NCBI GenBank assembly: GCA_963737655.1
Contig: CAVTTN010000002.1
Coordinates: 5,984,001 to 6,048,000 of the forward strand
DNA length: 64,000 bases
Origin: an uncultured Planctomycetota bacterium
GTDB taxonomy: Bacteria > Planctomycetota > Planctomycetia > Isosphaerales > Isosphaeraceae
Direction: 5' to 3'
Shown here: positions 1 through 23,410 of the stretch, in pieces
How the letters are laid out: the number at the start of each line of letters is the position of its first letter
Position numbering within the stretch: position 1 is the first letter of the stretch
The notes under the pieces: model-generated
The model's database searches: none
Told to the model about the DNA's origin: nothing
The model's input: only the letters and a program-made list of their open reading frames with translations
Position numbers and translations under genes: made by a program

Positions 1-91
1 TCGGCCGCCAGCGGCCCCCGATGAGCCGGGCCGACCCCCGATGGCCCAGTCTGTCCATGCCCACCCCTTTGCGGATCGGAGAGAGCCAGCC

Positions 92-639
92 GTGCCCCAC
101 ATCACACTCCCCGAAGGCGTCCCCGGCATCCTCGGGCCGATGACCGCCTATCCCGAGACCGAGCGCCACCTGAACGGCCTGGCCGAGGCCCTCCTGCGCG
201 GGCCGTCCTCGCTGACTCCGGCCGAGCGCGAGACGATCGCGACGTCGGTGTCGCACGGCAACGAGTGCTACTTCTGCACCCAGTCGCACGCCGCCGTCGC
301 CCGCGAGCACCTCGGCGAGCATCGCCACCTCCTGGACCTCGTCCTCGAAGACCGCGCTCGGCCCCGATCGACGAGAAGCTCAAGGCCTTGCTGGAGATCG
401 CCCACAAGGTCCGCCTGGACGCCCGCACCGTCCGCCCGGAGGACGTCGAGCGGGCCCGCGCCGCCGGCGCCGACGACAAGGCGATCCACGACACCGTCCT
501 GATCGCCGCCGCGTTCTGCATGTATAACCGCTACGTCGACGGCCTCGCGACCTGGGCGCCGCGCGACCCCGAGGTCTATCGCAGGATCGGCGTGAACCTG
601 GCGAGCCGGGGCTATCGGGGGCCGGACGCGGATGCCTGA
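92..639 (+). CDS. AhpD/carboxymuconolactone decarboxylase-family peroxidase-related protein (one frameshift near 355)
   Basis: GGAGAG RBS then GTG at 92; ORF 41..502 gives LTPAERETIAxxVSxxNECYFCxxSH (CxxC); continues in ORF 265..639 with DEKLKALL...IHDTVLIAAAFCMYNRYVDGL. Confidence 0.85.
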
Positions 640-2044
640 CTCGACGCGTCCGGAGATTGCCGCCCCCGACCTGATGCCCCGCCGCCTGGGCCTGGCCTCG
701 GCGTCGGCGCTCGTGGTCGGGCAGGTCATCGGCGTGGGGATCTTCCTCACGCCGTCGGACATGGCCCGCTCGCTCGGCTCGCCGTTCTGGCTCCTGGTCG
801 TCTGGGGCTCGATGGGCGTCATGGCGATCTGCGGCGCCCTGTCGTTCGGGGCGCTGGCGGCCCGCCACCCCGAGGATGGCGGCGGCTACGTCTACCTGCG
901 ACGGGCCTTCGGGCCTCGCGTCGCGTTCCTCTACGGCTGGATGTCGCTGCTGGTCACGGACCCCGGCCTCACCGCCATGCTGGCCGCGGGGCTGGCACGC
1001 TACGCGGGATCGCTGGTCCCGCTCGACGCGTTCGGCCTGCGGGCCGTCGCCGTCGGGGCGATCCTGCTCATGGCGGCGGTGAACGTCGCGGGGCTGGCGA
1101 TCGGCTCGGGGGTGCTGCGCGTGCTCTCGGCGCTGAAGCTCGGCCTGCTCGCGCTGATCGTCGTCGGGGGGTTCGGCTCCGGTCGGGGCTCGTGGGCGCA
1201 CTTCGATCCCTTCGTGAGCCGGCCCTCGGGCGCCGGCCCGCTCGTGCCGGCGCTCATCGGCGGGCTGCTCGCCGCGTTCTTCTCGCTCGCGGGGTTCTGG
1301 GACGTCAGCAAGATTGCGGGCGAGATCCGCGACCCGGCCCGCAACGTGCCTCGCGCGATGACGCTCGGCGTCTCGATCGTGACGCTCGTGTACGTCCTCA
1401 TCAGTGCCGTGTTCTGGTACCTCGTCCCGTGGTCCGCGGTCGACCCGGAGCGGGGCTTCGCCGCGCAGGCCGGAGCGATCCTGTTCGGCTCGGCGGTGGA
1501 GCGGGTGTTCGCCGGGGTCGTGATCGTCTCGGTCCTCGGCAGCCTGGCGGCGTACCTGATGGCGGCGCCCCGCGTGTACTACGCGATGGCCCGCGACGGC
1601 CTGTTCCCGTCGTGGCTCTCGGCGATCAGCCCGAGGCTCGGCACGCCGGCCCGCGCCACGGCGGTCCAGGCGACCCTCGCGTCGATCCTGGCGGCCTCGG
1701 GGTCGTTCGAGCAGATCCTCGCCTACTTCATGGCGGTCACGATCGGGTTCCTCGCTCTGATCGCCGCGACCGTCTTTGTGCTGCCCGCGACGGGCGACGC
1801 GGGGCGGGTGCCGGGGTCTCCGATCACCCCGCTGGGGTTCATCGTCCCGACGACGCTGGTAGTCGTTCTTCAAGTGATGAACGATCCCCTGCGTTCCGGG
1901 GGAGGCCTGGCCATCGTCGCGCTGGGCCTGCCCGCCTACCAGATCGCCATCCATCGCGGCGCCGCGATCGGGGGCCCGCGAGGGCCCGACGTCGGCCCAG
2001 GCCCGGAAGGCTCCGAATCACAGGCGTCGGCAGGCGCCGAGTGA
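632..2044 (+). CDS. APC-family amino acid permease
   Basis: Multiple TM helices; VIGVGIF, GGGYVYLRRAFG, GEIRDPARNVPRA and PRVYYAMARDGLF motifs; overlaps upstream stop. Confidence 0.9.
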   Translation: MPDSTRPEIAAPDLMPRRLGLASASALVVGQVIGVGIFLTPSDMARSLGSPFWLLVVWGSMGVMAICGALSFGALAARHPEDGGGYVYLRRAFGPRVAFLYGWMSLLVTDPGLTAMLAAGLARYAGSLVPLDAFGLRAVAVGAILLMAAVNVAGLAIGSGVLRVLSALKLGLLALIVVGGFGSGRGSWAHFDPFVSRPSGAGPLVPALIGGLLAAFFSLAGFWDVSKIAGEIRDPARNVPRAMTLGVSIVTLVYVLISAVFWYLVPWSAVDPERGFAAQAGAILFGSAVERVFAGVVIVSVLGSLAAYLMAAPRVYYAMARDGLFPSWLSAISPRLGTPARATAVQATLASILAASGSFEQILAYFMAVTIGFLALIAATVFVLPATGDAGRVPGSPITPLGFIVPTTLVVVLQVMNDPLRSGGGLAIVALGLPAYQIAIHRGAAIGGPRGPDVGPGPEGSESQASAGAE

Positions 2045-2095
2045 ATGTCCGTGTGGCCCGTTTGTTCCCATTCCTCGCAACAGGAGAGACGCATC

Positions 2096-2494
2096 ATGGC
2101 CGAGACGAACGACGCGGTGATCGGCAACCAGGAGTCGATCTTGGGCAACCAGGAGAGGATCCTGGCGAACCAGGCGACCATCGAGCGCAATCAGTCGAAG
2201 CTCGACAAGGTCGTCTCGAATCAGGCGGCGATCCTGGCGAACCAGGAGACCATCCAGCAGAACCAGAAGAAGCTGGACAGGATCGCCGCCAATCAGGCGA
2301 CCATCCTGGCGAATCAGGAGACGATCCAGCACAATCAGGAGAAGCTGGACAAGGCCATCGCCAACCAGGCGAGCATCCAGAGCAACCAGGAGCACATCCT
2401 GGCCAATCAGGAGACCATCGCCGCCAACCAGCGAGAGATCCTCGGCAACCAGCGAGAGATCCTCGCCAATCAGAAGAAGATCCTGACGAAGTGA
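2096..2494 (+). CDS. 132-aa heptad-repeat (IxxNQxx x16) coiled-coil protein of unknown function
   Basis: CAGGAGAG RBS, ATG at 2096; sequence parses into 16 NQ-containing heptads with three LDx insertions. Confidence 0.85.
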   Translation: MAETNDAVIGNQESILGNQERILANQATIERNQSKLDKVVSNQAAILANQETIQQNQKKLDRIAANQATILANQETIQHNQEKLDKAIANQASIQSNQEHILANQETIAANQREILGNQREILANQKKILTK

Positions 2495-2507
2495 CGGGTC
2501 CGCCGTC

Positions 2508-2540
2508 GGCGGCGCCGGCCGGTCTTCGGCCGGCGCCGCC
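2508..2540 (+). terminator. Perfect 14-bp GC stem-loop after the heptad gene (terminator or mRNA stabiliser)
   Basis: GGCGGCGCCGGCCG-gtctt-CGGCCGGCGCCGCC; no U-tract. Confidence 0.65.
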
Positions 2541-2610: not shown

Positions 2611-3797
2611 ATGGAAACCCCCCGCCCCGCCCCGCCGAAGCGGTCTCGCATCGGATCAGCGCTCGTCCCGCTCGCCCTCGCGGCCCTCGCGACGGGGTGC
2701 GGCGGCTCGTCGGAGGGCCCGAAGTCGGCCAAGGACGGTAGTCCGACGCCGGTGAAGGTCGCCTATTTGGGCCTCACCTGCGAGGCCGCCATGTTCGTCG
2801 CTCAGGAGAAGGGGTTCTTCAAGGACGAGGGGCTCGACGTCGAGTTCGTGAAGACCGACTGGGACGGACTGCGCGACGGCCTCGGCCTCGGCCGTTTCGA
2901 CGCCAATTACACGCTGATCATGTACCTGTTGAAGCCGATCGAGCAGGGCCTGGACGTGAAGATCACCGGCGGGGTCCATTCGGGATGCCTCCGCGTGCAG
3001 GTCGGCGCGAAGTCGGACATCAAGTCCCCCGAGGACCTCAAGGGGAAGAAGATCGGCATCCCCACGATGGGCAGCCCGCCGTTCCTCTTCGCCAGCCGCG
3101 TGCTCGCCGCGAAGGGGCTCGACCCGCGGAAGGACGTCGCCTGGGTCGTCGTCGCGCCCGAGGTCATGGGCCTGGCGCTGGACAAGGGGCAGGTCGACGC
3201 GGTGGCCGATTCCGAACCGCTGGGCTCGATCCTCACGGCCAAATCGGGAGTCCGCACGATCGCCGACCAGGCCGTCGACGCGCCGTACAGGGACGAATAC
3301 TGCTGCGCGACCGTCGTGAGCGGCAAGTTCGCGTCGAGGGACCCGGCCGGCGCCGCGAAGGTGACGCGGGCCTTGCTGAGGGGCGCCCGGTGGGTCGAGG
3401 AGAACCCGACGGCCGCGGCGAAGCTGGCGGTCGAGAAGAAGTACGTCGCCTCCTCGGCCGAACTCAACGCGCAGGCGATCGGCAAACTGCATTACATGCC
3501 GGGCGTCTCGCGCTGCCGAGAGAGCATCGGGCTGGCCGCGAAGGAGATGAAGGCGGCCGGGCTGCTCAACCCCTCGACGGATCCGGCCGAGCTTGCCAAG
3601 CGGGCCTGGATCGACCTGGAAGGCGTCGATGATGACTGGATCAAGGGCCTCCAGGTCGAAAAGGTCGCCGGGGGAGGCCGACCGGTCGAGATGGATCGCG
3701 TGGCGTTGGCCGCGCTCCTGCGCGCGAGAAGGACTCCCATTTCATGTGCTGCGCCGGCTGCGGCGCGGCGAAGGACGGCGAGCTGTGCGGACGATAG
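2611..3797 (+). CDS. NitT/TauT (SsuA-like) ABC substrate-binding lipoprotein with Cys-rich motifs (probable frameshift near 3725)
   Basis: GGAGG RBS; lipobox LATGC; AQEKGFFKDEGLDVEFV, DLKGKKIG and GQVDA motifs; alternative frame ends HFMCCAGCGAAKDGELCGR-TAG at 3797. Confidence 0.85.
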
Positions 3798-4812: not shown

Positions 4813-5638
4813 GCGCGATCGACCTCGACTCGTCGAGCCTGCACGTCCGAGAGGTCTCCCGATCCTTCCGCGCGGAGGACGGCTCGACGGTCCTGGCGCT
4901 CGACCGCCTGTCGCTCTCGGTCGCCCCGGGCGAGATGGTGGCCCTCGTGGGCCCGAGCGGGTGCGGCAAGTCCACCCTCCTGCGGCTGATCGCCGGCCTG
5001 GATCGGCCCTCGTCGGGCGAGCTGCGGATCGGCTCGGAGCCGATCGCCGGCCCGAGCGCCGAGCGCGGGCTGATGTTCCAGGACCCGACGCTCTTCCCCT
5101 GGGCGACGGTCCGGCGTAACGTGGAGGCGGGCCTCGTCGCGCGGGGCGTCCTGCGCCAGGGTCGCGGCGAGGTCGAGGAGTATCTCAGGCTCGTCGGCCT
5201 GGACGCCTTCGCCGACGCCTATCCGCACCAGCTCTCCGGCGGCATGGCGCAGAGGGCGGCCCTGGCCCGGGCGCTCATCAACCACCCGAAGGTCCTGCTG
5301 CTGGACGAGCCCTCGGCGCCCTCGATCAATTTACCCGGATGCGGATGCAGGACGAGGTGATCCGGCTCTGGCAGGCGCGGAAGACGACGATGGTGCTGGT
5401 CACGCACGACATCGACGAGGCGCTCTACATGAGCGACCGCATCGTGATGATGACCCCGCGGCCGGGGCGGATCGACCGGGTCCTCGACGTCCCGCTCGAA
5501 CGGCCGAGGCATCGCAACGACCCCCGGTTCCTCCGCCTCCGCGCCCAGATCCTCGACGACCTCCACTTCTCCGGCGGAAGAGCCGCGGCCCCCATCGACG
5601 CCGGGGCCCACGCCCCGGACGCGGGCGGTGCGTCATGA
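4806..5638 (+). CDS. NitT/TauT ABC ATP-binding protein (frameshift near 5312)
   Basis: Walker A GPSGCGKST, LSGGMAQR, LLLDEP, VTHDIDEA, PRPGRI. Confidence 0.9.
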
Positions 5639-8600
5639 CCCGGGCCCGACGGATGCTGTTCCTCGTCGTCGGGCTGCCCCTGGCGATCCTCGCCGTCGGC
5701 GGGACGGCCCTCCTGATCTGGTGGGCGACTCGTTCGAGGCTGCCCGCTCCGGGCTCGCCACGTTACGAGGAGATGGTCTCGGCCTTCTCCTCGGGCGTCG
5801 CGGCCCTCGACTCGGACGCGAACCCGATCGCTCGCGACGCGCTGGACCGGGCCGTCGGGATCGTGCCCGAGGAGCCGGCGGCCTGGGCGAACCTGGGCCT
5901 GGCGCTGCTCCGCCTCAACGACCTCGAAGCGTCCGCGAAGGCGATGGAAGAGGCCCGCAAGCTCGCCCCCGACAGCGGAGCCGTCGAGCACCTTTCGGCA
6001 CTCCTCGAGGAGCGCCGCGGCGACTTCGACAGGGTCGTGACGCACCTGAAACGGGCGATCGATCTGGACCCGAAAGCCCTCCGGTCCCGCTACGCTCTCG
6101 TCAAGGAATACGAGCGCCAGGGGCAGGCCGAGGCCGAGGCCCTCCGGCTGCTGGCGGAGATCGTGGAGCTGGCCCCGAGCAACCTCGCCGCGCAGATCGA
6201 CCGGGCCCGCCTGGCGGCCAAGTCGGGCGACGCCGAGTCGCTCCGGGCGGCGATCCGGGGCCTGAGCGGCCAGTCGGCCTCCTGGCCCGAGAGGGCCCGC
6301 GAGCAGTTCGCGTCCGTGGAGAAGGCCATCGCCGAGAAGAACCCGAGGCTCGCCACGTCACGCGTGCTGGGCCTCCGCAACCTGCTCGTGACCGTCCCCG
6401 CCTTCCGCCAGGGGAGCGACGCCCTGGAACTCCCGGCCGGCACCGTGGGCGCGCCGATCCCCCGGTTCCTGCGCATGCCGAACCCCTCTCCAACTCCCGC
6501 GCCGCCGGATCGGTCGGTCGCGTTCGCCTTCAGTCCCCCGGGCAAGGACGCGGCGAGGAGGGCGGACGCCGTCTTCCTGCTCATCGACCCCAAGGATGGT
6601 GCGGTGACGCTCCTCGAAGCCGACGGCCGCGAGCTTCGCAGGGCCGGCGGCTCGGGCACCATCGCCCCGTTCCCCGGCGGGGGGGACGCGAAACCGCCGA
6701 CGCCCCACGGCGTCGCCGTGGCCGACTGGAATTCGGACTATCGGCCCGACCTCGTCCTCGCCGGCGCCGGGGGTGTCCGGTTCCTGAAGCAGGAGGAGGA
6801 CGGCTCGTTCACCGACGTGACCGCCGCCACGAAGCTGGGGCCGGAGATCCTCGGGACGAACGCCTCGGGCATCTGGGCCGCGGACATCGAGATGGACGGC
6901 GATCTCGACTTCGTGGTCGGCGTGCGTGACGGGGCGACGCGGGTACTCGTCAATCGGGGCGACGGCACCTTCGCGTCGGACGAGTCCCGATTCAAACAGT
7001 GCAAGGATATGCACAATTTCGCGTGGTCCGACCTGGACGGAGACGGCGACCCCGACGCGGCGATGGTCGAGGGGACCGGCCCCGCCGGCTTCTCGAAGCT
7101 GCGCGTGTTCATGAACGAGCGGGCCGGCCGGTTCGTGGAAAGGGAAGTGCCCCAGGAGATCGAAGGCGTCCGAGACCTCGCCGTGGGCGACGCGGACGGC
7201 GACGGCCTGATGGACCTGCTCCTCCTGACGTGGTCCACGGTCCTGCGACTCTCCGATCGCGAGGGCGGCCGATCCTGGGATTTCGCGGAGCTGTTCCGGA
7301 GGCCGGGCCCGAAGGACGGCGGCGGGGATCGCCTCCTGGTCGCGGATCTGGACAACAATGGCGCGATCGATCTGATCCTCTCGTCACGAGAACTCGCCAC
7401 GGAGGCTCTGGCTCGGCGGGCGGCCGGGCGATCCCTGGGTCCGCGCGGCCGGTGCGATGGAGTCGCTGGCGCCGTTCCAGGTCTTCGGGATCGCCGACGC
7501 GAACCGCGACGGACGTCTCGACGTCGCGGGGACCGTGAGCAACGGCGTCGCGGGCCCGACGGTCTCCCTCGGCACCAACAGCGGGAAGGCGTCGTATGGC
7601 TGGCTCGACGTCCGCCCCCGCGCCGCGAAGAGCGTGGGGGACGGCCGCATCAACTCCTTCGGCCTCGGCGGCGAGATCCAGGTCCGCGCGGGCCTGCTCG
7701 TCCAGAAGCAGGTGATCGCCGGCCCGGTGGTCCACTTCGGCCTCGGCACCCACAACGGGGCCGACGTCGCCCGCGTGGTCTGGCCGAACGGCACGGCGCA
7801 GGCCGAGTTCAACACGAAAGCGAATGTCGCGATCGCCGCCGAGCAGAGGCTCAAGGGCTCGTGCCCCTTCATCTATGCCTTCGACGGGTCGGAGATCCGC
7901 TTCGTCACCGATTTCCTCTGGCGCTCGCCCCTGGGGCTGCGGATCAACGCGCAGGACACGGCGGGAGTCGGCCAGACGGAGGACTGGATCAAGATCCGAG
8001 GCGACCAGCTCGCCCCGCGCGAGGGGAATTACGACCTCCGCATGACCGCCGAGCTGTGGGAGACCCATTTCTGGGACCACGTCTCGCTGATGGTCGTCGA
8101 TCACCCCAGTGGCACCGAAGTGTTCGTCGACGAGCGGTTCGCCCGCAAGCCGCCGACGCTGAAGGTCCACGCCACGGGGCGCGTCCGCCCGGTGAAGAGC
8201 GCTCGCGACGATCGGGGAGACGACGTCCATGACGTCGTCCGCGCGGGACGGCCGCTATCTCGACACCTTCGGCCGGGGCTTCTATCAGGGCGTCACGCGT
8301 GATCACTGGGTCGAGGTCGAGATCGGCGAGGACGTGCCGAGGGACCGGAAGCTCGTCCTCGTCGCCGAGGGCTGGATTCACCCGACCGATAGCTCGATCA
8401 ACGTGGCGCTTGGTCAGGGGACTCATGAGCCGCCGAGGGGGCTAAGCCTGGAGGCCCCGACGGCAGACGGCCAATGGGCCGTGGTTCGCGACCACCTGGG
8501 GTTCCCGGCCGGCAAGAACAAGACCGTTCTCATCGACCTGGACGGCGTGTTCCGGTCCGATGCCCCGCGCAAGCTCCGCCTGAGGACGAATCTGGAGGTC

Positions 8601-9164
8601 TATTGGGACGCACTCTCGGTCGCGACGGCCGAGGACGGGGCACCCCTCAAGATCCGCCGCATAGCCCCGGCGACGGCCGACCTGCGCCATCGCGGCTATT
8701 CGCGGATGACGCAGGCGGATGCCGGCTCGCCGGAAACCCCTCGCTACGATATCCTGGACGGGGGGCGCCAGCGCTGGAATGACCTGATCGGGTTCTACAC
8801 CCGGTTCGGCGACGTCCGCGAGCTTCTGGAGCGGGTCGACGACCGCTACGTGATCGCCAACGCCGGGGACGAGGTCCGGCTCCTCTTCCCCGCCGCGGAC
8901 CCTCCGCCGCCGGGATGGACGCGCGACTTCGTCCTGATCGGCGACGGCTGGAACAAGGATGGCGACTACAATACGGCGTTCTCGAAGACCGTCCTGCCCC
9001 TGCCGTCCCACGCGCGACCGAATTACGACACGCCTCCGGGCGAGCTGGAAGACGACCCCGTCTATCGGGACCATCCGGACGACTGGCAGCAGTATCACAC
9101 CCGTTACGTCACACCGCACGTCTTCCGCGACGGGCTGAAGCCCCGGGCGGTCGCGAAACCATAG
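5635..9164 (+). CDS. Membrane-anchored TPR + FG-GAP + ASPIC/UnbV (CRTAC1-like) protein with C-terminal extension (frameshifts near 7400 and 8230)
   Basis: N-terminal TM; TPR (AAWANLGLALLRL); repeated DxDxDGxxD loops; HFGLG...VVWPNG; KGSCPF motif; joins ORFs 5635, 7457 and 8229. Confidence 0.8.
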
Positions 9165-9184: not shown

Positions 9185-10984
9185 ATGCTCGGGGCCAAGG
9201 CCGGACGGATCGCCGCGATCCTCCTGTTCGTCGGGCTGATCGGCGCGACCCTGGTGCTGAATCGCTCGTCGCCGTCGTCGGGGGGGGCGAAGCCGTCCCC
9301 CTCGGGGTCGAAGTCCGAAGGGCCCTCGCGCTACGGCTTCCGCCTGGAAGAGGTGTCGAAGGCGTCGGGGATCGACTTCGTCCACAAGGCCCCCACGCTC
9401 GACGCCAAGCTCGCGCACATCATGCCGCAGATCGCCTCGATGGGCGCGGGGGTCTCGGCGGTCGACTTCGACCGCGACGGCTGGCAGGACCTCTACGTCA
9501 CCAACAGCGGCGAGGGGAGCTTCAACCGGCTCTATCGCAACAGGAAGGACGGCACGTTCGAGGACGTCGCCGGCCCCCTCGGCGTGGCCGACGTCAACAA
9601 GGAGGGGACCGGCGTCTCGATGGGCTCGGTCTGGGGCGACTACGACAACGACGGCTATGAAGACCTGTTCCTCTACAAGTGGGGCCGCCCCGAACTCTTC
9701 CACAACGACGGCGGCAAGGCGTTCACCCGCCAGACCGAATCCGCCGGCCTCCCCGCGTGGGTCAACGCCGGGTGCGCGACGTGGCTCGACTTCGACCGCG
9801 ACGGCCGGCTCGACCTCTTCCTCGGCGGCTACTGGGCCGACGACCTCGACCTCTGGCACCTCAAGACGACGAAGATGATGCCGGAGAGCTTCGAGTATGC
9901 GAAGAACGGCGGGCGCAAATACCTCTTCCGCAACGTCGGCGACGGCCGATTCGAGGACGCGGCCAAAACGACCGGCCTGGAGAGCCGCGCTGGGCGCTGT
10001 GCGCGGCGGCGGCCGATCTGCGAGGGACCGGCTTCCCCGACCTGGTCGTCGCCAACGACTACGGCGTCTCGGAACTCTTCGCGAATGAGGGCGGGAAGCG
10101 ATTCCGCGAGATCGGCAACGCGACGGGGGTCGGCTTCGCGCCCAAGAGCGGCATGAACGTCAGCTTCGGCGACATCTTCAACCAGGGCCGGTTCTCGATC
10201 TACGTGACGAACATCTCCGAGGAGGGCGTCCTGATCCAGGGGAACAACCTCTGGGTCCCTCGCGAGGGGACGAAGGGGGACGGCCTCAAGTACGACAACC
10301 TGGCGCGCGAGACGGGCGTCGAGCTCGGCGGCTGGAGCTTCGGCGCCCAGTTCGGCGACCTGAACAACGACGGCACGCAGGATCTCGTGCTCACCAATGG
10401 TTATATCTCGGATGCGAAGGATGCCAGCTACTGGTATGACTACTCGGTGATCGCCGGCGGTCACAGCTCGATCATCTCCGACGCCAAGAACTGGCCGGCG
10501 ATGGGGGACAAGAGCCTCTCGGGCTACCAGGCGAAGCGCGTCTGGATGAACGACGGCGCGGGGCATTTCGCCGACGTGGCGCAGGCCGTCGGCTACACCG
10601 ACCGGCACGACGGCCGGGCCGTGATCCTCGTTGACCTCTGGAACCGCGGCGCGCTCGACCTCGTCGTCGCCAACCAGAAGGGGCCGCTGCTCGTCTACAG
10701 GAACACGGTCGATCCCGCGAACAAGTGGATCGGCTTCGACCTCCGCGGCAAGGCGTCCAACCGCAGCGCCATCGGGGCCGAGGTCCGTCTGTTCTGGGAC
10801 GGGCAGGAGCAGCTGCAGCAGGTCACGGGCGGCGCGGGTACTCGGCGCAGAATCCCCGCCCGCTGCACTTCGGCCTGGGCAAGTCGCCGAAGATGGAGAA
10901 GGCCGTCATCCGCTGGCCGTCCGGCAAGGAACAGGTCATCCCGACGCCCGAATCCGGGCGCGTTCATACGGTGGAGGAGCCCTG

Positions 10985-10985
<1 letters not shown>
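9185..10985 (+). CDS. CRTAC1/ASPIC-UnbV FG-GAP repeat protein (frameshifts near 9985 and 10835)
   Basis: N-terminal hydrophobic anchor; DFDRDGWQDLYVTN and DYDNDGYEDLF repeats; SNRSAIGAEV and GYSAQNPRPLHFGLG...IRWPSG. Confidence 0.85.
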
Positions 10986-11875
<890 letters not shown>

Positions 11876-11924: not shown

Positions 11925-13295
11925 ATGTTGCAGGGCGTGGAGAGGCTGGACGACCTGATCGGGCCGCGGGCGTCGGGGCTCACCGGCGCGACCCTGGACG
12001 AGGTCGCATCGGCCGTGCATCGGGCCGACGTCGATCGGCTCGCGGCGACCGGCGGGCACTTCGCCGCCGTGGCGCACGAGGGGCACACCGTCCGCCTGGC
12101 GAGGACGATGGGGGTGCCCCTGCGCTACTTCGTCGCCAAGCGCCATCACGGCCCCTATCTCGTCGTCTCGGACCGCATCGATCGCCTCTATGAGTATTGC
12201 TGCTCGCTCAAGATCGGCTGGCAGTTCGACCCTCTCTACACGCGGATGATCCCGGCGCACTACCTCGTGGAGGTCGATCAGGTCGGATGCCCCGACCCGA
12301 ATCCCCGGTATCGCCGCTTCTTCTCGCCCGAGGTGGCGCAAGGGCCTCGCGACCTCGACGCGCTCGGCGCCGCCTACGTGCGTGCTGCCTACGAGACGGC
12401 CCGCGACTGGATCGCGCGGGTGCCGGATGGTGAGCCGATCGCCGTGCTCTTCTCGGGAGGCGTGGACAGCGGCTCGGTCTTCCTGCTGGCCCGGAAGGCG
12501 CTCGCCGAACTCGGCCGCGACCCGAACCTGTTGCGGGCCTACTCGCTCGACCTCGGCGGCGGCGAAGACGCGGCCCAGGCCGAGCGCTGGGTGCGCGAGC
12601 TCGGCCTCGAATCGCAGTGGGAGCGGATCGCTCCGGAAGGCGCGAAGCCCGATTACGAGGAGGCGATCGCGACGATCGAGGACTATCACCCGCTCGACGT
12701 CGAATGCGCCGCGGCGTCGCTCCTGCTGCTGAGGGCGATCCGAGAGCGGCATCCCTCGGTGCGTCACCTGCTCGACGGCGACGGCGGAGACGAGAACCTC
12801 AAGTCGTACCCGCTGGAGGATTCGGACCTGACGATCTCCAGCATCCTCCGCAACCCGATGCTCTATCAGGAGGGCTGGGGCATCGACGCGGTCAAGCACA
12901 GCCTGACCTACTCGGGCGGGCTGTCACGCTCCTATATCCGAACATATGCCCCGGCGGAGCGGCTCGGCTTCTCCGCGTTCAGCCCTTATACGACGCGCGC
13001 CGCCATGGCCGGCGCCGTGGCGATCCCGTTCGAGGACCTGCTCGCGGGGGACGCCGGGCGGCTCGCGACGCTCAAGGCCGACGTCGTCCGCGCGGGCGTC
13101 GAGGCCGTCACGGGCGTCCGCATGCCGGTCTTCGCCAAGCGACGGTTCCAGGACGGCGCCGGCGGCGCCTATCGTCAGTGGCGCGTGAGCAAGGCGTGGT
13201 GCCGGCAGGTGTTCCTCCGCCAGTGGGAGGAGCGGCTGAAGGTCGCGTGGTCGCCGTTCGCCGAGCGCGTCTCGGGCAACGCGGTGCCGGTCTGA
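11925..13295 (+). CDS. Asparagine-synthetase-like ATP-dependent amide ligase lacking the N-terminal glutaminase Cys
   Basis: PP-loop LFSGGVDS and DGDGGDE; N-terminus MLQGVERL has no Cys at position 2. Confidence 0.8.
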   Translation: MLQGVERLDDLIGPRASGLTGATLDEVASAVHRADVDRLAATGGHFAAVAHEGHTVRLARTMGVPLRYFVAKRHHGPYLVVSDRIDRLYEYCCSLKIGWQFDPLYTRMIPAHYLVEVDQVGCPDPNPRYRRFFSPEVAQGPRDLDALGAAYVRAAYETARDWIARVPDGEPIAVLFSGGVDSGSVFLLARKALAELGRDPNLLRAYSLDLGGGEDAAQAERWVRELGLESQWERIAPEGAKPDYEEAIATIEDYHPLDVECAAASLLLLRAIRERHPSVRHLLDGDGGDENLKSYPLEDSDLTISSILRNPMLYQEGWGIDAVKHSLTYSGGLSRSYIRTYAPAERLGFSAFSPYTTRAAMAGAVAIPFEDLLAGDAGRLATLKADVVRAGVEAVTGVRMPVFAKRRFQDGAGGAYRQWRVSKAWCRQVFLRQWEERLKVAWSPFAERVSGNAVPV

Positions 13296-13312: not shown

Positions 13313-14305
13313 ATGACGATCTATCCCGACGACCCCTCCGCCCGGGATCGCTGGATCCTGGAGCGGAGGCCGCCTCGCAACGCGCTCGACCCCCGGCGCC
13401 CCTACGTGGTCCTCGCGGAGGCCGAGCCCGGCCCGGACGGAAGTGCCGTCGACGTCGCGACGGTCTTCCTCACGAATCGCGAATGCCCCTGGCGCTGCCT
13501 GATGTGCGACCTGTGGAAGAACACCCTGGAGGACACGGTCCCCGAAGGGGCGATCGCCGAGCAGGTCCGATTCGCCATCGAGGGCCTGCCGCAGATCGAG
13601 CCGGCGCGTTCGCACCTGAAGCTCTACAACGCCGGCAGCTTCTTCGATCCCCGCGCGATCCCGCCGGCGGAATACGCCGAGGTCGCCCGGCTCGCCGCCC
13701 CGTTCGCCCGCACGATCGTCGAATGCCACCCCGCGCTCGTCGGGCGACGCTGCGTCGAGTTCCGCGACCGGCTCGCGAAGCCTCTGGAGGTCGCCTTGGG
13801 GCTCGAGACGACGCATCCCGAGGTGCTGCCGCGACTCAACAAGCGGATGACGCTCGACCGCTTCCGCGCCGCGGCCGAGTTCCTCAAGGACCACGACATC
13901 GACCTGCGCGTGTTCATCCTGGTCCGACCCCCGTGGCTATCCGAGGCGGAGGGGGTCGAATGGGCGGGGCGATCCCTGGATTTCGCCTTCGACTGCGGCG
14001 CGTCCGTCTGCTCGCTCATCCCGACGAGGGCGGGCAATGGCGCGATGGAGGCCCTCCGAGAGTCCGGCGACTTCGCCCCGCCGTCGCTCGCCTCGCTGGA
14101 GGCGGCCCTGGAATACGGCCTCTCCCTGCGGGCCGGTCGCGTCTTCGCCGACCTGTGGGACATCCAGTCCCTGGCCCTCTGCCCCTCATGCCGAGCCGCC
14201 CGCATCCGCCGGCTGGCCCGCATGAACGCGACGCAGAGCATCCCCGCCCCGATCGCTTGCCCCGATTGCCGGAGCGCCGACGGGTTGCATCGTCCGGATT
14301 CATGA
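13313..14305 (+). CDS. Radical SAM protein, RaSEA/TIGR01210-like
   Basis: TVFLTNRECPWRCLMC (CxxxCxxC), KLYNAGSFFDP, EVALGLET, RLNK; extra C-terminal CxxC pairs (CPSC, CPDC). Confidence 0.8.
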   Translation: MTIYPDDPSARDRWILERRPPRNALDPRRPYVVLAEAEPGPDGSAVDVATVFLTNRECPWRCLMCDLWKNTLEDTVPEGAIAEQVRFAIEGLPQIEPARSHLKLYNAGSFFDPRAIPPAEYAEVARLAAPFARTIVECHPALVGRRCVEFRDRLAKPLEVALGLETTHPEVLPRLNKRMTLDRFRAAAEFLKDHDIDLRVFILVRPPWLSEAEGVEWAGRSLDFAFDCGASVCSLIPTRAGNGAMEALRESGDFAPPSLASLEAALEYGLSLRAGRVFADLWDIQSLALCPSCRAARIRRLARMNATQSIPAPIACPDCRSADGLHRPDS

Positions 14306-15831: not shown

Positions 15832-18800
15832 TCAGCGGGGCCGGGCGAAGACCTCGGCCGGCAGCTCGGGGAGCGGCCTGGTCCCGACTTCGAGCTCGCG
15901 ACGGAGGATCTGCCATTCGGCGGCCTCCCAGGGCCCCGGGGGCCGGGGGGCCGACTCGAAGCGGTCGCGCCATCGTCGGGCCGAGGGCGCGTCGCCCATG
16001 GCGCGGGCGGCGATCGCCAGGAAGGCCCAGTCCTGGGGCTGGGCGCCCTCCGGGTCGGCCTGGATGCCCTCCAGGAGCCGGTCCGTCGCCTCGCGGTATC
16101 GGCCGTCGCGGACGAGCAGGGCGCCGACGGTGTTGAGGATGCTGTGGCGGCGGCGGCCCTGGTCGCGGGGCGCGGCCCGCAGGGCCCCCTCGGCCAGGGC
16201 GAGCGGCTCGGCGTCATCGGCCCCCGCGCCCGGGGCCAGGGCGCAGGCGAAGGCGGCTTGGTTGGCGTGCATCGTCCCCTCGTGGCCGCGGGCCCCGGCG
16301 AGGATCCGGGCGCAGGCCTCGCGATAGCCCGGGAGGTCGCCGGCCATCAGGGAGGCGACGGCCCGGCGATAGGTGAAGATCGGGGGCGCCGCGGGCCCCG
16401 GCCCTCGACGATCGCCAGGAGCCGCGAGGCGCGGCCCCACCGCCCGGCCGCGACGAGCCGGTCGGCCTGGCGGCCCACCCCGGCGAGGTCCATCCCGAGG
16501 CCGGCGGCCCGCTCCAGGTCGTCGTCGCGGTCGTCGATCCGCCCGGCCTGGCCGCGGACCTCCGCCCTCTCGGCCAGGGCCCTCCAATCGCCCGGATGGC
16601 CGGCCAGGAGGCGGTCGAGATACCAGGTCGCCGACCCCGGACGGCCCGCCCCCGCGCCTCGGCCGCCCGGGTCCGTTCCCAGTCGCTGAGGGCCTCCGAA
16701 GGCGCGATCCGGGCGGCCCGGTCGAGGGCGGCCTCGGCCTCGTCCCGTCTCCCGTCGCGTTCCAGGGCCGTCGCCCGCCGCGCCTCGACGGCCCAGTCGC
16801 CGGGCCGCAGGGGGGCGAGGCGGTCGAGGTGCCAGAGGGCGGCGAAGGTGAGGCCCTCGGCCTCGGCGGAGTCCAGGGCCAGGGCATGGCGCCGGGCGGC
16901 CCGCTCGGGGGATTCCTCGGGGTCCGGGACGGGCGCGAGCCGGTCCCTCTCGGCCCAGGACGAGGCCGCCATCGGGACGACCGATCCGATCGACGGGTCC
17001 AGGGTCGCCCCGGTGGCCAGGGCCAGGGCGTCGGACGTCTCCTCGGGGCCCGGCTCGGGGCCGGGCTCGGGCAGGGGCCAGGACCGGACGATCAGGCCCT
17101 CGCCGGCCCCGAGGATCGACGCGCCGTCCCGGGAGAAGGCCAGCGCCTGGAGGGGGCCCTCGGCGACCAGGGGAGGGCCGACCGGCGCGAACGTGGCCGC
17201 GTCGTGGAGCCGCCCCCGGCCGTCGTCGCCGAGCAGGGCCAACCATCGGGCCGACGGGTCCGCGACCAGGGCGGCGAGTCCCCGGGCCTCGGGGATCACC
17301 AGCCGGAGCGGCTTGCCGGCCCGCACGTCCCACTCCCAGACCCCCCCGGGGCCCTTCGTCAGGAGCCGGTCTCCGGGCAGGAAGGCCACGGCCCCGGGGT
17401 TCTGGGCCGGGATGGCCAGGGGGACGCCCCGGGGCCGCAGCGGGTCCAGGTCCCAGAGCTGATAGCGCCCGAAGTCGGCGCCTTCGAGCGTCCCCATCGA
17501 CCGGACCAGCAAGGTCCGACCGTCCGGGCTGAATCGCGTCCAGGTCGCGAAGCCCTGGACGTCCGCCGAGTCCCGGAGCCGGCCCGACTTCGCCTCGTAG
17601 AGCCGGATCTGGGAGCGATGCGGGTCGCGAGGCTCGTCCTTCAGAGTGCCGACGGCCAGGGTCGAGTCGTCGGGCGAGAAGGAGACCGACATCCCCCGGG
17701 CCCGAGGGCCAGCGGGGCGCCGGCCATCCGGCCGTCGGAGGCGTCGAGCCGGAAGAGGGCGCCGCCGAAGCCGGTGGCCGCCAGGGCCTTGCCGTCGTGA
17801 GAGAAGCCCATCGACAGGATCCAGTTGGGACGGGGCACGCCCGGGCCTACCGCGCGGCCCCGGGCGTCGTGGAGCCGGAGCTCGGCCGAGACGCTCAGGT
17901 CGTCGCGGGAGGCCGTCGCCCAGGTCGGCCCGCTCGGCCCGGCCGCCAGCAGGACGCCGCCGCCGGGCCACCCCAGGGGGATCGGGGCGCCGATCGGCCG
18001 TCCGTCCGCGGAGACGGCCTGGGCGAAGCCCGCGGCCGGGTCGGTGACCAGGGCCCGGTCCGACCCCGGCGCGAAGACCGCCTGGCCCACTCGGCCCGGC
18101 CTCATCGGCGCCGGGATCGGCCGGTCCGGGAGCCTCCAGAGCCGGAACGACCCCTCGATCAGGACGCCCAAATCGCGGCCGTCGGGGCGGAAGGCCAGGT
18201 CGGTGACCGGGCCGGGCTCGGCCAGGAGCTCGGCCCGGGCCGCGCCGTCCCGGACGTCCCGGAAGATCACCCGGCCGTCGTTGGACCCCGTGGCCAGGGT
18301 GGCCCCGTCGGGGTGGAAGGCCAGGGCCGTGACGAACCCGCCCCCGGTCCGGACCGGGCCCCGGGCGGCCCCTCGGCGGCAGTCGTAGAGGCCGACGTCG
18401 CCCGAGTGGTGGACGATCGCCAGGGTCTCGCCGTCGGGGCCGAGGAGGTGGCTGGCGGGGCGGTTCACGAGCCCGGGCAGGCCGGTCAGGGACGCCTTGA
18501 GTCCGCCCGAGGCGTCCCAGAAGTCGAGGACCCAGTCGGTGGTCGGGTCGTCCGGCCGGAGCCGGCCGGGGGACATCGTGGCGACGCCTCCCCGGCCGTC
18601 GAAGACGGCGAAGGCGGCCCCGGCCGGCATCCCGGGGGCGGCGCCCCGAGGCTCCCCCGAGGCCACGTCCCAGAACCGGGCGCCCCCGGGGCCGATCGTC
18701 AGGGCGACCCGCCCGCCCGGCCCGACGGCCACCGCCTTCACGGCTCCGGCCCGGATCGGGGGCCCCAGGGGCCGGCCCGTCCCCCGGTCCCGGACCACGA

Positions 18801-20730
18801 CCGTCCCGTCGGGCTCGGCCCGGGCCAGGGCCTCCCCGTCGGGCGAGGCCGAGAGGTCCCAACGGTGGAGCGACCCGTCCCGACCGGCGACCGGGGCGCC
18901 GGTGGCCAGGTCGAAGGCCCTCGGGCCGTGTTCGGCGGAGTCGATGGTGATCGTCGAGGGGTCGGGGCCGAACTCGAGGTGCCGGGCGGTCCCCAGGTCG
19001 GGGAGGACCCGGAGGAGCCGGGGGGCGGAGGCGGCCCAGGCGGCCAGGTTCAGCCGGGCCAGGCGTCGCGAGTCCGGGGCCATCTCGGGGGTCTCCAGGC
19101 TCCGGGCCAGCCACAGACGGCCCGCCACCGTCTCCCCGCGGTCGAGGAACCCCAGGGCCCGGTCCAGCGTCAGGTCGGCGGCCGTCCGCCTGGCCTCGCG
19201 GCGGGCCTCGACGGCCTCGGCCGTCCGTCGGGTCGCCTCTCGCCACTTCCAGACCGTCAGGCCGAAGCCGACGAGGATCGCCAGGACCACCGAGGCGGCC
19301 AGGCCCGAGACCGTCGGCTCGCGGCGGACCCAGCGCGCGGCCCTCTCGGCCAGCCCCAACCTCCGGGCCCGGATCGGCTCGCCCGCGAGGTAGAGCCTGA
19401 GGTCCTCGGCCATCTCGCCGGCCGAGGCGTACCGGGCCGAGGGGGCCTTGGCCATCGCCTTCAGGGCGACGGTCTCCAGGTCCCGGGGGACCCGGCGGTC
19501 GATCGACCGGGGCCAGGGCGGCTCCTCGCGGAGGACTTTCTCGATCAGGCGGGCCCGGTTGGGCTCGTCGAACAGGGGGCGCGAGGTCAGCAGCTCGTAC
19601 AGGGTCACGCCCAGGGCGTAGACGTCGCCCCGGACGTCGGACCGGCCGTCGAACCGCTCCGGGGCCATGTAGCGGAGGGTGCCGACGATGTCGCCGGTGC
19701 GGGTCAGGGCCTCGCCGTCGCCGTCGAACGACTTGGCCAGGCCGAAGTCGGCCACCCAGGCGTCTCCCCGGTCGTCGATCAGGACGTTCGAGGGCTTCAC
19801 GTCGCGGTGGAGGATGCCCTGGCGGTGGGCGTAGTCCAGGGCCTGGGCGACCTGGAGGGCTACCCTCGCCGCCTCCCGGAACCGATCCCGGCCGGGATCG
19901 GTTCCGGGAGGCGGCGACGGCTCGGGCCCGGGCGGGGCGGGCGCCGGTCCCTCGGCCGGGAGGCCGGGCCCGGGGGGAGCGGCGAGCGTCGCGTCGGCGT
20001 CGAGCTCCAGGGTCGGAGGGCCGTCGGACGGCCCGGGCCCCGGTCCCGCCGAGACCGTCGCGCCGTCGGTCGGCCTCGGCCCCCAGCCACGGCGGGAGAC
20101 GGCGTCCAGCCCTTCGCCTTCGATGAATTGCATGGCGTAGAAGAGGTAGGGCGCGGCCTCCCCCACGCCGAAGACCGGGACGATGTTCGTGTGGTGCAGG
20201 CGGGCCGCGGCCCGGGCCTCGCGCCGGAACCGCTCGGCCTCCGGGGCGTGCGTCCCGGCCGGGGGGGCGATGACCTTCAGGGCGACCCGTCGGTCCAGGG
20301 CGATCTCCTGGGCCTCGTACACGACCCCCATCCCGCCCCGCCCCACCTCTCGGACGATCCGGAATCCCGGGATCGCCGGCCGGGAGCCCGCCGGGAGGGC
20401 CGGGGCCCGACCGTCCCCGGTGGTGGCGTCGGTCGAGTGCGGGGGCGACGAGGAGGTCCGGGGCGGCCCCATCCGCTTCAGGAGGTCGAGATAGGGCGCC
20501 GGCGGGGCCTGGTCGTCGCGACCGGTCGGGACTCCGGCGTCGGCCAGCCCCTCCAGGCCGGCGCGGCAGGCCCGGCAGCCCGCGACGTGGGCCTCGACGG
20601 CCTCGGCCTCGGCCCCCTCCAGCCGGTCGTCCAGGTATCGGGCCAGGTGGGCCGACGGGTAGCAGCCGGGCGCCGAGGGGTCGGACGGCTCCGGGGCCGG
20701 GCGGTCGGGCCCGCCGTGGGTCGGGGTCAT
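15832..20730 (-). CDS. Ser/Thr kinase with N-terminal zf-HC2 anti-sigma finger, TM, WD40 repeats and TPRs (frameshifts near 17700 and 16650)
   Basis: HVAGCRAC; GRGGMGVVY, HRDVKPSN, DFG, YMAPE; TM LAASVVLAILVGFGL; AFHPDG/AFRPDG repeats; TPR-like C-terminus. Confidence 0.9.
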
Positions 20731-20800
20731 GGGTGCATTCCTTCCGACGGGCGGAGAGGTCTCGACTCCCCCCAGGAGCAGTCGCCGGGCCGTCGGGGCG

Positions 20801-21412
20801 TCATCCCGCGTCGGCCTCGGCCCCGCCGGGGCGTTCCAGGTCGCGGACCGCCTCCCGGAGCCTCTTCAGGACGTTGCTCTTGGCCTTGAAGACGGCGGCC
20901 ACGGACAGGCCCAGGCGCCCCGCCGCGTCGTCCGCCGCGACGCCGTCCCGGGCGGTCATCCGATAGGCGTCCCAGGTCGTCGCCGAGACCCGGGCGCGGA
21001 CCCGCCGCTCGGCCTCTTCGAGCAATTCCAGGTCGTATTCTTCCTCCAGGCGGCGGGCGAGGTCCTCGCGGGCCTCGACCCCGGCGAGCCCGTCGAAGAA
21101 CTCGCCCCGGCGCGCGGCCCGGTCGCGATCGGCCAGCCAGTCGCGCCAGGCGTTCTCCGTGAGCGTGCGGAGCCAGCCGCGGAAGCTCCGCCCCGGGTCG
21201 TACCGGAACCGTTCCATCTGCCGGGCGAGCTTCATCAGGACGGCCTGGGTGACGTCCTGGGCGTCGGCCTCCTGGAGCCTCCAGGCGCGGCACCAAGCGT
21301 AGATCTTCGGGGCGTAGCGGTCGACGAAATCGGCCCACGCCTCCTGATCCCTGGCCCCCTGGCAGACTCGCCCGAGGAGGCTCGCGTTGGTCCGGGAGGC
21401 GTCATCCAGCAT
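20801..21412 (-). CDS. ECF sigma-70 factor (kinase-associated)
   Basis: TNASLL..., AWADFVDRY, DAQDVTQ, SFRGWLRT, AVFKAKSNV. Confidence 0.9.
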   Translation of the reverse strand: MLDDASRTNASLLGRVCQGARDQEAWADFVDRYAPKIYAWCRAWRLQEADAQDVTQAVLMKLARQMERFRYDPGRSFRGWLRTLTENAWRDWLADRDRAARRGEFFDGLAGVEAREDLARRLEEEYDLELLEEAERRVRARVSATTWDAYRMTARDGVAADDAAGRLGLSVAAVFKAKSNVLKRLREAVRDLERPGGAEADAG

Positions 21413-21737
21413 GTCGACGAGGCTCCGATCGGGGCCGGATGGCTCAGGAGGTCCGGCCGAGGGAGGCGTTGGGGGTGCGTCGCGAGGAAGGAGCGGAGGG
21501 TCGGGATTTCTTCAAACTAGAATCGATCGGCCCTCGGTCGTCAAGTTTCCCGCCCGACGCCCGAGGGAATCGCCGCCCTCGAATTTTTTCCGGGGGCGAT
21601 TCAGGTCTCGGCCGGTCGGCCGGTATAGATCGGTGTACCCAACGACGCGGCCTCCGACGACGGGGGCCGACGGGCCGAGGGCCGGGCGGGGCAACCGGCC
21701 GGACAGACGATTCCCCCTTTCGCGAGGAGACCGAGCC

Positions 21738-22004
21738 ATGGCGATCCAGAATCTTCGGGGCGGCGATCCGGTCGAGGCGATGGTGGAGCTGACCGACGAC
21801 CAGCTCGCCGGAGTGGCCGGAGGGGCGACCCATCCGACGATGGTGACCACCTCGGCCACGGGGACCACCACGACCACCGGGGGCGCGATCGTGACTAGCA
21901 AGAGCAGCGACACCCTCACCGCGACCCCCACGACCGTCACGACTTCGGGCGCGCCGAAGACCTCGGAGTCGACGCTCACCGGCTCGCCGGGCTCGGTCGG
22001 CTGA
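21738..22004 (+). CDS. Double-glycine-leader precursor peptide (88 aa; 59-aa Thr/Ser-rich core)
   Basis: GAGGAG RBS; leader ...ELTDDQLAGVAGG; directly upstream of HlyD and a C39 exporter. Confidence 0.85.
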   Translation: MAIQNLRGGDPVEAMVELTDDQLAGVAGGATHPTMVTTSATGTTTTTGGAIVTSKSSDTLTATPTTVTTSGAPKTSESTLTGSPGSVG

Positions 22005-22011
22005 CCGGCGC

Positions 22012-22052
22012 CGACCCGGGCGGGGCGATGAGTTCGCCTCGCGCCCGAGTCG
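22012..22052 (+). terminator. Imperfect stem-loop between precursor and secretion genes
   Basis: CGACCCGGGCGGGGCGA-tgagt-TCGCCTCGCGCCCGAGTCG. Confidence 0.5.
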
Positions 22053-22076
22053 ATTCGATCGCGGAAGGAAATCGCC

Positions 22077-23387
22077 GTGCCCCCGAGTGGATCGCCGATC
22101 GCCCTGGTCGCGGAGAGGCCCCCCGAGGCGTTCGAGCAGCTCGACGCCCCGGTTCGGGTCGTCTCCCTGCGCCTGTGGATGTTCCTGGGGGCGTCTCTGC
22201 TGACGCTGGGGTCGGTCGCGGCGTTCGCCACGCTGTACCAGGTCCCGCTGACGGTCCCGGGCCGGGGCATCCTCCTGGCCGGTCCGGGCGGGGGCGGCGA
22301 GAGCCTGCTCCAGGTCACCGCGCCGTCGTCGGGCCGGCTGACGACCGTCCTCACGGCCGTCGGCGCGACGGTCCGCGCCGGGGACACGATCGCCGAGATC
22401 GACCAGAAGGAGATCCGCGACGAGCTGGTGGCCGCCGAGGCCGACCTCGCCCGGCTCCGCGAGGAGGACCGCGAGCTCAGCCGCTTCGACCGGGCGGAGG
22501 AAGAGTCGCGGGCCTCGGCGCTGGCCAAGGTCGAGGAGGCCCTCCGCCGGACCATCGACATCGACCGCAATCGCCTGGCCGACTACCGGAGGATCGCCGC
22601 CGGGGACCGCAGCCTGAACCAGAAACGGCTCCTGAGCGACGCCGAGGCGTTGAGGTCCCGCGCCGAGGCCGACGCCATCGAGAGCGCCATCGGCTCGGGC
22701 GAGGCGAAGATGCAGGAGCTGGTCTTCGACCGCCTGAAGGACCAGACGACCCGCCGCCGCGAGAAGGTCCAGCGCGAGCTGGCCATCCATCGGACCGAGA
22801 TCGAGATCGGGCTGCTCCGGGACCGGCTCGACCGCGAGACCCGCCTGCTCTCGCCCCACGACGGCAAGGTGATCGACCTGCGGATCACCCCGCATGCCCT
22901 GGTGGAGAAGGGCTCGGTGGCGGCCCTGCTCCAGCCCCGGGCCCCGGCGGGCGCCGCGATGGAGGCGATCGTCTTCGTCCCGGCCGGCCGCGGCAAGAAG
23001 ATCCGGGTCGGCGACCCGGTCGAGATCCTGCCCGACACGGCGCTCCGGCAGGAGCAGGGGTTCATCCGGGGGGAGGTCCGCTCGATCTCCGAGATCCCCG
23101 CCACCGACGGCGCGATGCTCGCCGAGCTGAAGCATCCGGCGCTGGTGGCGCACTTCTCCGGCAAGGCCCCCGGCGAGGTCCTCCTGGGCCTCCGCGTGGC
23201 CCTGCCCGAGGCGACCCCGGGCGCGCAGGACTCGGGCCGGAGGAACCGCCTGGTCTGGTCGTCCCGGTCGGGGGCCTCGCACCCGCTGACCGCCGGGACG
23301 CTCTGCGGGGCCGACGTCGTCGTCGAGCATCGCCCTTTGATCGCCCTGGCCATGCCCTGGGTCAAGCACCTCCTCTCGATCGATTAG
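22077..23387 (+). CDS. NHLM-type bacteriocin secretion membrane-fusion protein (HlyD family)
   Basis: PEAFEQLD...V, TM, VPGRGILL, coiled coil, GKKIRVG, GFIRGEV, AGTLC...V. Confidence 0.88.
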   Translation: MPPSGSPIALVAERPPEAFEQLDAPVRVVSLRLWMFLGASLLTLGSVAAFATLYQVPLTVPGRGILLAGPGGGGESLLQVTAPSSGRLTTVLTAVGATVRAGDTIAEIDQKEIRDELVAAEADLARLREEDRELSRFDRAEEESRASALAKVEEALRRTIDIDRNRLADYRRIAAGDRSLNQKRLLSDAEALRSRAEADAIESAIGSGEAKMQELVFDRLKDQTTRRREKVQRELAIHRTEIEIGLLRDRLDRETRLLSPHDGKVIDLRITPHALVEKGSVAALLQPRAPAGAAMEAIVFVPAGRGKKIRVGDPVEILPDTALRQEQGFIRGEVRSISEIPATDGAMLAELKHPALVAHFSGKAPGEVLLGLRVALPEATPGAQDSGRRNRLVWSSRSGASHPLTAGTLCGADVVVEHRPLIALAMPWVKHLLSID

Positions 23388-23410
23388 TTCGAGCCACTTC
23401 CTCCAGGACG

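Follow-up and report, generated by a model that had tools for sequence, protein, structure and literature searches.

Polar core layers in coiled coils have a chemistry that is already known. In the accessible part of PMC12933892, both the [I/V]xxN and the Qxx[I/V] heptad are named as halide sites in trimeric coiled coils, and amide layers are described as lowering trimer stability and making trimers chloride- or bromide-dependent in model systems. Long runs of Asn at position d also serve as plain structural stalks, with 37 consecutive layers in one adhesin (accessible part of PMC13580157), and stammers strain coiled coils (PMC4786415, as far as its accessible text goes). In the metastable trimer of L1ORF1p, ion-coordinating layers and a stammer make a deliberately unstable bundle (PMC5940361, accessible part).

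The enediyne warhead cassette is a second described system, with the proteins E3, E4 and E5 also called UnbL, UnbV and UnbU. E3 to E5 reportedly act in iodination. According to the accessible part of PMC11069151, enediynes cannot be produced without iodide, and the roles of E3, E4 and E5 are uncertain.

The window analysed here is a stretch of 64,000 nucleotides from an uncultured member of the Isosphaeraceae. Its repeat protein shares the [I/V]xxN and Qxx[I/V] heptads with trimeric polar-layer coils (autotransporter stalks with Asn at d, GCN4 variants and MoMuLV TM; also Gln at a), together with long consecutive runs and adjacent stammers (accessible parts of PMC12933892, PMC13580157 and PMC4786415). 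It differs from them in that it belongs to a family of stand-alone proteins of 43–138 aa without head, anchor or signal peptide, in which Asn is followed by Gln instead of Thr, both motifs are overlaid in each heptad and the repeat is also used as the input domain of a regulator. Compared to a trimeric autotransporter adhesin, the signal peptide, head and beta-barrel anchor are absent. L1ORF1p is unrelated in sequence and role and serves as an analogy only.

The neighbouring genes include adjacent homologues of E4 and E5 in the same order as in the C-1027 cluster, whereas identity to the enediyne proteins is 27%, neither a polyketide synthase nor DUF1702 was seen beside them, and genes for a TPR-UnbV protein, AsnS-like and RaSEA-like enzymes, an ABC importer and a halogenase or deiodinase-like protein are additional. 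Activators armed with the repeat share GAFTGA, AAA+ and HTH elements, a -24/-12 promoter and upstream palindromes with other bacterial enhancer-binding proteins. Their input differs, being a putative four-unit amide-core coil or, in two genomes, a PltM-like halogenase; such activators are absent from the window's genome. A literature search that covered few subscription papers, with sources accessible in part, yielded no description of the repeat family, of a stand-alone cytoplasmic polar-layer coil, of its use as activator input or of the E4/E5-like cassette.

The repeat gene and its neighbourhood

The features of the locus are listed in Table 1. The encoded protein contains 16 Asn-Gln dipeptides, spaced by seven residues twelve times and by ten residues three times; each ten-residue spacing carries Leu-Asp, which yields a 24-residue super-repeat. 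The heptad ILANQET occurs three times, His twice, and Cys, Phe, Trp and Tyr are missing. The repeat architecture, the lack of Cys and aromatic residues and the ribosome-binding site are thus as described in an earlier sequence-only reading of this DNA.

Table 1 Features of the repeat locus (positions within the window)
Position	Strand	Feature	Basis or remark
1..24	+	3' end of upstream region that includes a deiodinase-like gene	gene at G000:C2:5983512-5983967, just before the window
41..639	+	AhpD/CMD-like peroxidase-related gene	in two frames
632..2044	+	APC-family amino-acid permease	
2082..2087	+	ribosome-binding site AGGAGA	sequence
2096..2494	+	repeat protein of 132 aa with 16 I-x-x-N-Q units and three 3-residue inserts	sequence
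2508..2540	+	perfect 14-bp G+C hairpin, 5-nt loop, no U-tract	sequence
2611..3741	+	NMT1-like ABC binding protein	conserved C57, H123, C126, C231, C232
3785..5638	+	ABC permease and ATPase	frameshifted in assembly
5635..9164	+	TPR + FG-GAP + ASPIC/UnbV protein	three frames in the window
9185..10985	+	CRTAC1/UnbV protein, enediyne E4 homologue	frameshifted in the window
10985..11875	+	RnfD-like membrane protein, enediyne E5/UnbU homologue	27% over 194, E 1e-14
11925..13295	+	asparagine-synthase-like ATP pyrophosphatase	no N-terminal Cys
13313..14305	+	radical SAM enzyme, relative of archaeosine lyase RaSEA	TIGR01210 below cut-off

Comparison with relatives indicates that the ORF is a real gene, because orthologues with 65–76% identity occur in six Isosphaeraceae-type genomes and the changes relative to the L002 orthologue include 20 synonymous codons and are biased to the third codon position (25/20/39 mismatches by position). 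Its GC3 is 0.92. The gene is intact and single-copy, and no other repeat locus was found in the window's genome, while many neighbouring genes of the window are frameshifted in the assembly. The hairpin behind the gene is likely an mRNA-stabilising stem and not an intrinsic terminator; no terminator was called there. The earlier reading had taken it as a sign of high expression. The perfect stem is present, but high expression does not follow, since the U-tract is absent and, among family members, strong downstream hairpins (z ≤ -2) are limited to 31 of 113 genes (median z -0.6).

A -24/-12-like string upstream of the gene was rejected as a sigma-54 promoter because the -12 G is missing. The protein gave no Pfam or NCBIfam match over the cut-off, and Pfam matches to DUF7262, DUF3695 and FlbT were rejected as below it. 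A search of the ESM Atlas returned only unnamed clusters of low recognition value.

Just upstream, the deiodinase-like gene is a match to PF00837. Relatives of the TPR-UnbV protein are encoded by one ORF of about 1150–1200 aa. The intact L002 orthologue of the E4 homologue is 27% identical to the C-1027 cluster protein over 579 columns (E 2e-51), so that homologues of both E4 and E5 stand side by side in the window. The gene list for positions 1–30000 contains no polyketide synthase ORF. DUF1702 (E3) was found in none of the loci L117–L156 except the C-1027 locus, and a search of the window's genome, run without a positive control, found none either. The radical SAM protein scores 90 bits against TIGR01210 (cut-off 212), suggesting a relative of RaSEA and not a member. 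The AsnS-like and RaSEA-like genes stay paired across Planctomycetota and Acidobacteriota; by analogy with ArcS/RaSEA, as described in partly accessible sources, the pair might add lysine to a small molecule, cleave it and leave the nitrogen behind.

The repeat family and its predicted core

Profile and word searches indicate that the repeat proteins form a real family without a Pfam or NCBIfam name. The full profile search gave 809 representatives at E ≤ 0.001, a set whose tail includes some unrelated repeats, and 379 at 1e-10; a word search gave 131 relatives. Among 105 distinct proteins derived from loci, the length is 43–138 aa with 4–16 units, spaced by seven residues (687 times) or ten (185 times, with Leu-Asp in 148). 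The ten-residue spacing is a stammer. The residue three positions before Asn is Ile in 78% and Val in 14%; Cys is absent and His rare.

An AlphaFold2 monomer model of the window's protein is a single helix from residue 2 to 131 (pLDDT 95). A sequence search of the PDB found no relative of the protein, and comparison of the model with PDB folds found no match.

The repeat unit fits both halide heptads named in the accessible part of PMC12933892. By sequence, a beta-branched residue and an amide fall in core positions, as in halide coiled coils with Asn at d or Gln at a. Across 1013 layers tested in the loci, both amides are kept in 941, only Gln in 29 and only Asn in 2; database proteins show Gln without Asn 35 times and Asn without Gln 10 times, and the activator arms have the same bias. 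A hydrophobic residue, typically Leu, follows Ile in 70% of layers, and the charged, variable residues are those at the next two positions behind Gln. As Gln is better conserved than Asn, the register may be Gln at a and Ile at d, with Leu at e and Asn at g, which may fit at least as well as Asn at d. The earlier assignment of Asn to position d is therefore insecure. Neither classic trimer register fully explains the Leu beside Ile, and the bundle may comprise more than three helices. Whichever register applies, the core would carry an amide layer in every heptad.

A subfamily of about 155–170 aa (P0009, P0010, P0020, P0021, P0032, P0033, P0078, P0001, P0003, P0135) has degenerate repeats and keeps Gln more than Asn. 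Two repeat-gene copies per locus occur in L033 and L202. Some database proteins seem to join the repeat to a deiodinase, E5, halogenase, ABC or ECF-sigma gene, but these were interpreted as frameshift read-throughs and left out of the fusion count.

Linkage to the cassette across genomes

Gene neighbourhoods tie the repeat family to a cassette of E4/E5 homologues, a Cys-rich ABC importer and AsnS-like and RaSEA-like enzymes, as judged by homology. A further element differs by group, being a deiodinase-like gene in planctomycetes or a PltM-like halogenase gene in acidobacteria. Distinct repeat genes on loci no shorter than 12 kb number 56; at a strict threshold, a cassette gene lies within 10 kb of 37 and of none of the other 19, an E4, E5 or TPR-UnbV gene was counted in 28 and a binding-protein gene in 25. 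The linkage to the cluster in other genomes, which the sequence-only reading had set as a test, is thereby borne out. The position of the repeat gene inside the cassette varies.

Close E5 homologues occur in 10 of 18 Isosphaeraceae repeat carriers (eight lack one) compared to 1 of 82 other genomes, in 5 of 6 acidobacterial carriers compared to 12 of 294, and in 2 of 2 carriers across Planctomycetota compared to 7 of 178. The centres were excluded from these tables and, since kin are not independent, P-values overstate the co-occurrence. G493 was counted as a carrier from a partial match beside the cassette; without it, the first comparison becomes 9/17 versus 2/83. Weak matches (G411, G452, G461 and G471, of which three loci were examined and lacked a repeat ORF), unrelated DNA repeats (G544, G602, G687) and G098, G375, G295, L013 and L014 were left out of the counts, and the unpublished G528 enters only the denominator of 301. 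Where the repeat gene is isolated, each of the 5 genomes tested has E5 elsewhere; G790 carries the repeat but lacks E5. Conversely, 12 of 18 acidobacterial genomes with a close E5 lack the repeat gene, which is thus dispensable and accessory to the cassette.

Deiodinase-like genes are present in 84 of 101 family genomes, so only adjacency counts; read from gene places, one lies within 15 kb of the repeat gene in 9 of 18 Isosphaeraceae carriers. The nearest structure to the acidobacterial cassette halogenase is PltM (E 5e-46), with Lys87 aligned. The flavin-binding GxGxxG and the catalytic Lys are present, predicting a flavin-dependent phenolic halogenase; PltM itself uses Cl, Br and I (PMC6424973, accessible part). 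No PltM-like halogenase was found in five planctomycete genomes, the window's included. The halogen links of the cassette are based on homology, at 27% identity for E4/E5, and are to be taken as putative.

HMA and DUF169 genes recur among the neighbours. In L079–L084, the repeat gene stands with the ABC importer and genes for an HMA protein, a NifU-like protein and a small DsrE-like protein. L004:8698-9849 and its relatives encode secreted proteins that combine EF-hand and deiodinase-like parts and have Cys at the active-site position, often fused to or beside multi-domain AhpD-like proteins; in other copies within the family, an in-frame TGA possibly encodes selenocysteine.

Sigma-54 activator fusions and promoters

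In nine genomes of a single class of Acidobacteriota, which to judge by the name of P0133 is likely Blastocatellia, the repeat forms the sole N-terminal domain (first ~68 residues, four units) of sigma-54 activators with GAFTGA, AAA+ and HTH domains. Searching that class matched 24 of 171 genomes. Each of these activator genes is followed by a free repeat copy, which is the first gene behind a -24/-12 promoter. The site is present in 9 of 10 upstream regions of activator-linked free genes compared to 0.6 expected, the tenth region belonging to a second tandem copy. Aligned, repeated palindromes lie upstream and, where the contig reaches, genes for a TonB-dependent receptor, an MFS protein, an AhpD-like protein and the cassette follow downstream. 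Outside the activator-linked loci, the sigma-54 scan gave only a small surplus, with 18 of 95 compared to 12.4 expected, several of the 18 being activator-linked duplicates.

G847 and G922 have activators of the same clade (98/96 support) in which an in-frame halogenase-like domain replaces the repeat arm, and these still face a free repeat gene. The fusions (L225:6873-9515, minus strand; L218:10573-13218, plus strand) join a PltM-like halogenase to a sigma-54 activator in 881 aa. The two genomes are close kin and count as one event; the fusion could be due to chance, given that in L203 the activator gene lies directly behind that of the halogenase.

Proposed function and alternatives

We tentatively propose a halide-binding coiled coil, acting as a sensor when fused and as a buffer or carrier when free, a prediction that we hold with slightly less than even confidence. 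The small all-helical protein would self-assemble into a coiled coil of parallel, probably three, helices, with Asn/Gln layers holding halide ions in its core. Amide layers and 3-residue stammers would leave the bundle marginally stable, so that halide binding would switch folding on. On the sigma-54 activator, the arm would oligomerise with halide and so assemble the AAA+ ring, so that the fused form would switch the operon by halide-gated oligomerisation. The free form, as in the window, occurs much more widely than the fusion and hence needs a role of its own, for which buffering scarce halide or delivering it to E4/E5-like and deiodinase-like enzymes would be the simplest. The ligand may be chloride or iodide; by arithmetic, 16 ions per 44-kDa trimer are costly for millimolar chloride and cheap for micromolar iodide. 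This reading gains independent context from the halogenase, deiodinase-like and E4/E5 neighbours and from the sensor position in the activator.

A wider proposal is more doubtful, namely that the family provides a minimal iodide or chloride sensor (in activators) and store (when free) for a widespread, so far undescribed halogenation pathway built on E4/E5 homologues without an enediyne synthase, hosted by soil Planctomycetota, Acidobacteriota and Armatimonadota. If correct, the repeat would represent a novel type of transcriptional input domain, and E4/E5 would be general iodide-handling proteins. Ions in coiled-coil cores are usually seen as structural, and a repeat-only protein on an activator would make them a signal. 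A halide sensor or binder of 60–130 residues would be of use in engineering, and the cassette would offer a simpler setting for probing enediyne E4/E5 function. It also hints that abundant soil bacteria make halogenated metabolites not yet known and carry out a bacterial version of the RaSEA reaction.

Unlikely, though a serious alternative, is that the repeat is a ligand-independent scaffold, its amides setting register or stability, or that it binds something other than halide in its Asn/Gln grooves, such as a metal, the cassette product or a partner chain. The structural stalks with long Asn-at-d runs are a precedent, conservation at four positions (I, L, N, Q) may reflect a broader interface, and the Cys/His of the binding protein together with HMA, NifU-like and DUF169 neighbours point to metal traffic. 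However, metal binding by the repeat itself is improbable given its lack of Cys and few His residues, and this alternative leaves unexplained both the repeat in activator input position and its swap for a halogenase domain.

PspA feeds back on PspF, and the free protein might similarly act on the sigma-54 activator by assembling with its repeat arm, as an anti-activator or co-activator. The nine genomes in which the free gene adjoins a repeat-bearing activator are in line with such feedback. We nevertheless consider it rather improbable, as none of 12 activators in the window's genome, with its one repeat locus, covers the arm (control G859 positive), the free gene persists next to activators whose arm has been lost, and most carriers have no such activator, any activator match lying within 10 kb in only 11 of 56 loci.

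Storage of nitrate or another oxyanion, imported by the adjacent NitT/TauT-type importer, is a remoter reading. Asn layers are said to bind nitrate, a binding-protein gene lies near the repeat gene in the 25 loci above, and TauE exporters adjoin it in some. Against this, the binding protein matches NrtA/CmpA at E 1e-6 to 1e-5 only, with all NCBIfam matches below cut-off, no nitrate-reduction genes recur among the neighbours, and the ion load per trimer calculated above is poor for a bulk nutrient. Both binding-protein types have conserved Cys/His and look thiol- or metal-oriented; together with the weak NrtA likeness, this leaves any import of nitrate or halide hypothetical.

The earlier reading's alternative, in which the repeats are a multi-core precursor peptide made on the ribosome and modified by the AsnS-like ligase and the RaSEA-like enzyme, is very improbable. 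Both enzymes share the operon in the window and close relatives. However, all 5 repeat-bearing genomes tested lack the two, among them one that is 96% complete in 2 contigs (the RaSEA control was positive for G434 and G749), and both occur in genomes without the repeat. The first unit begins at residue 5–8 in 84 of 105 proteins, leaving no room for a leader, and activators use the module as a domain.

Other observations

Upstream of the window, two opposed type I-C-like cas gene sets and a transposase precede the cassette (G000:C2:5961000-5979000, read from ORF starts). Within the window, positions 17641-28704 hold a Ser/Thr kinase-WD40 gene with an ECF sigma factor. Positions 21738-22001 encode what we take to be a short Nif11-like leader peptide, followed by HlyD and peptidase-ABC transporter genes, possibly a RiPP export cluster.
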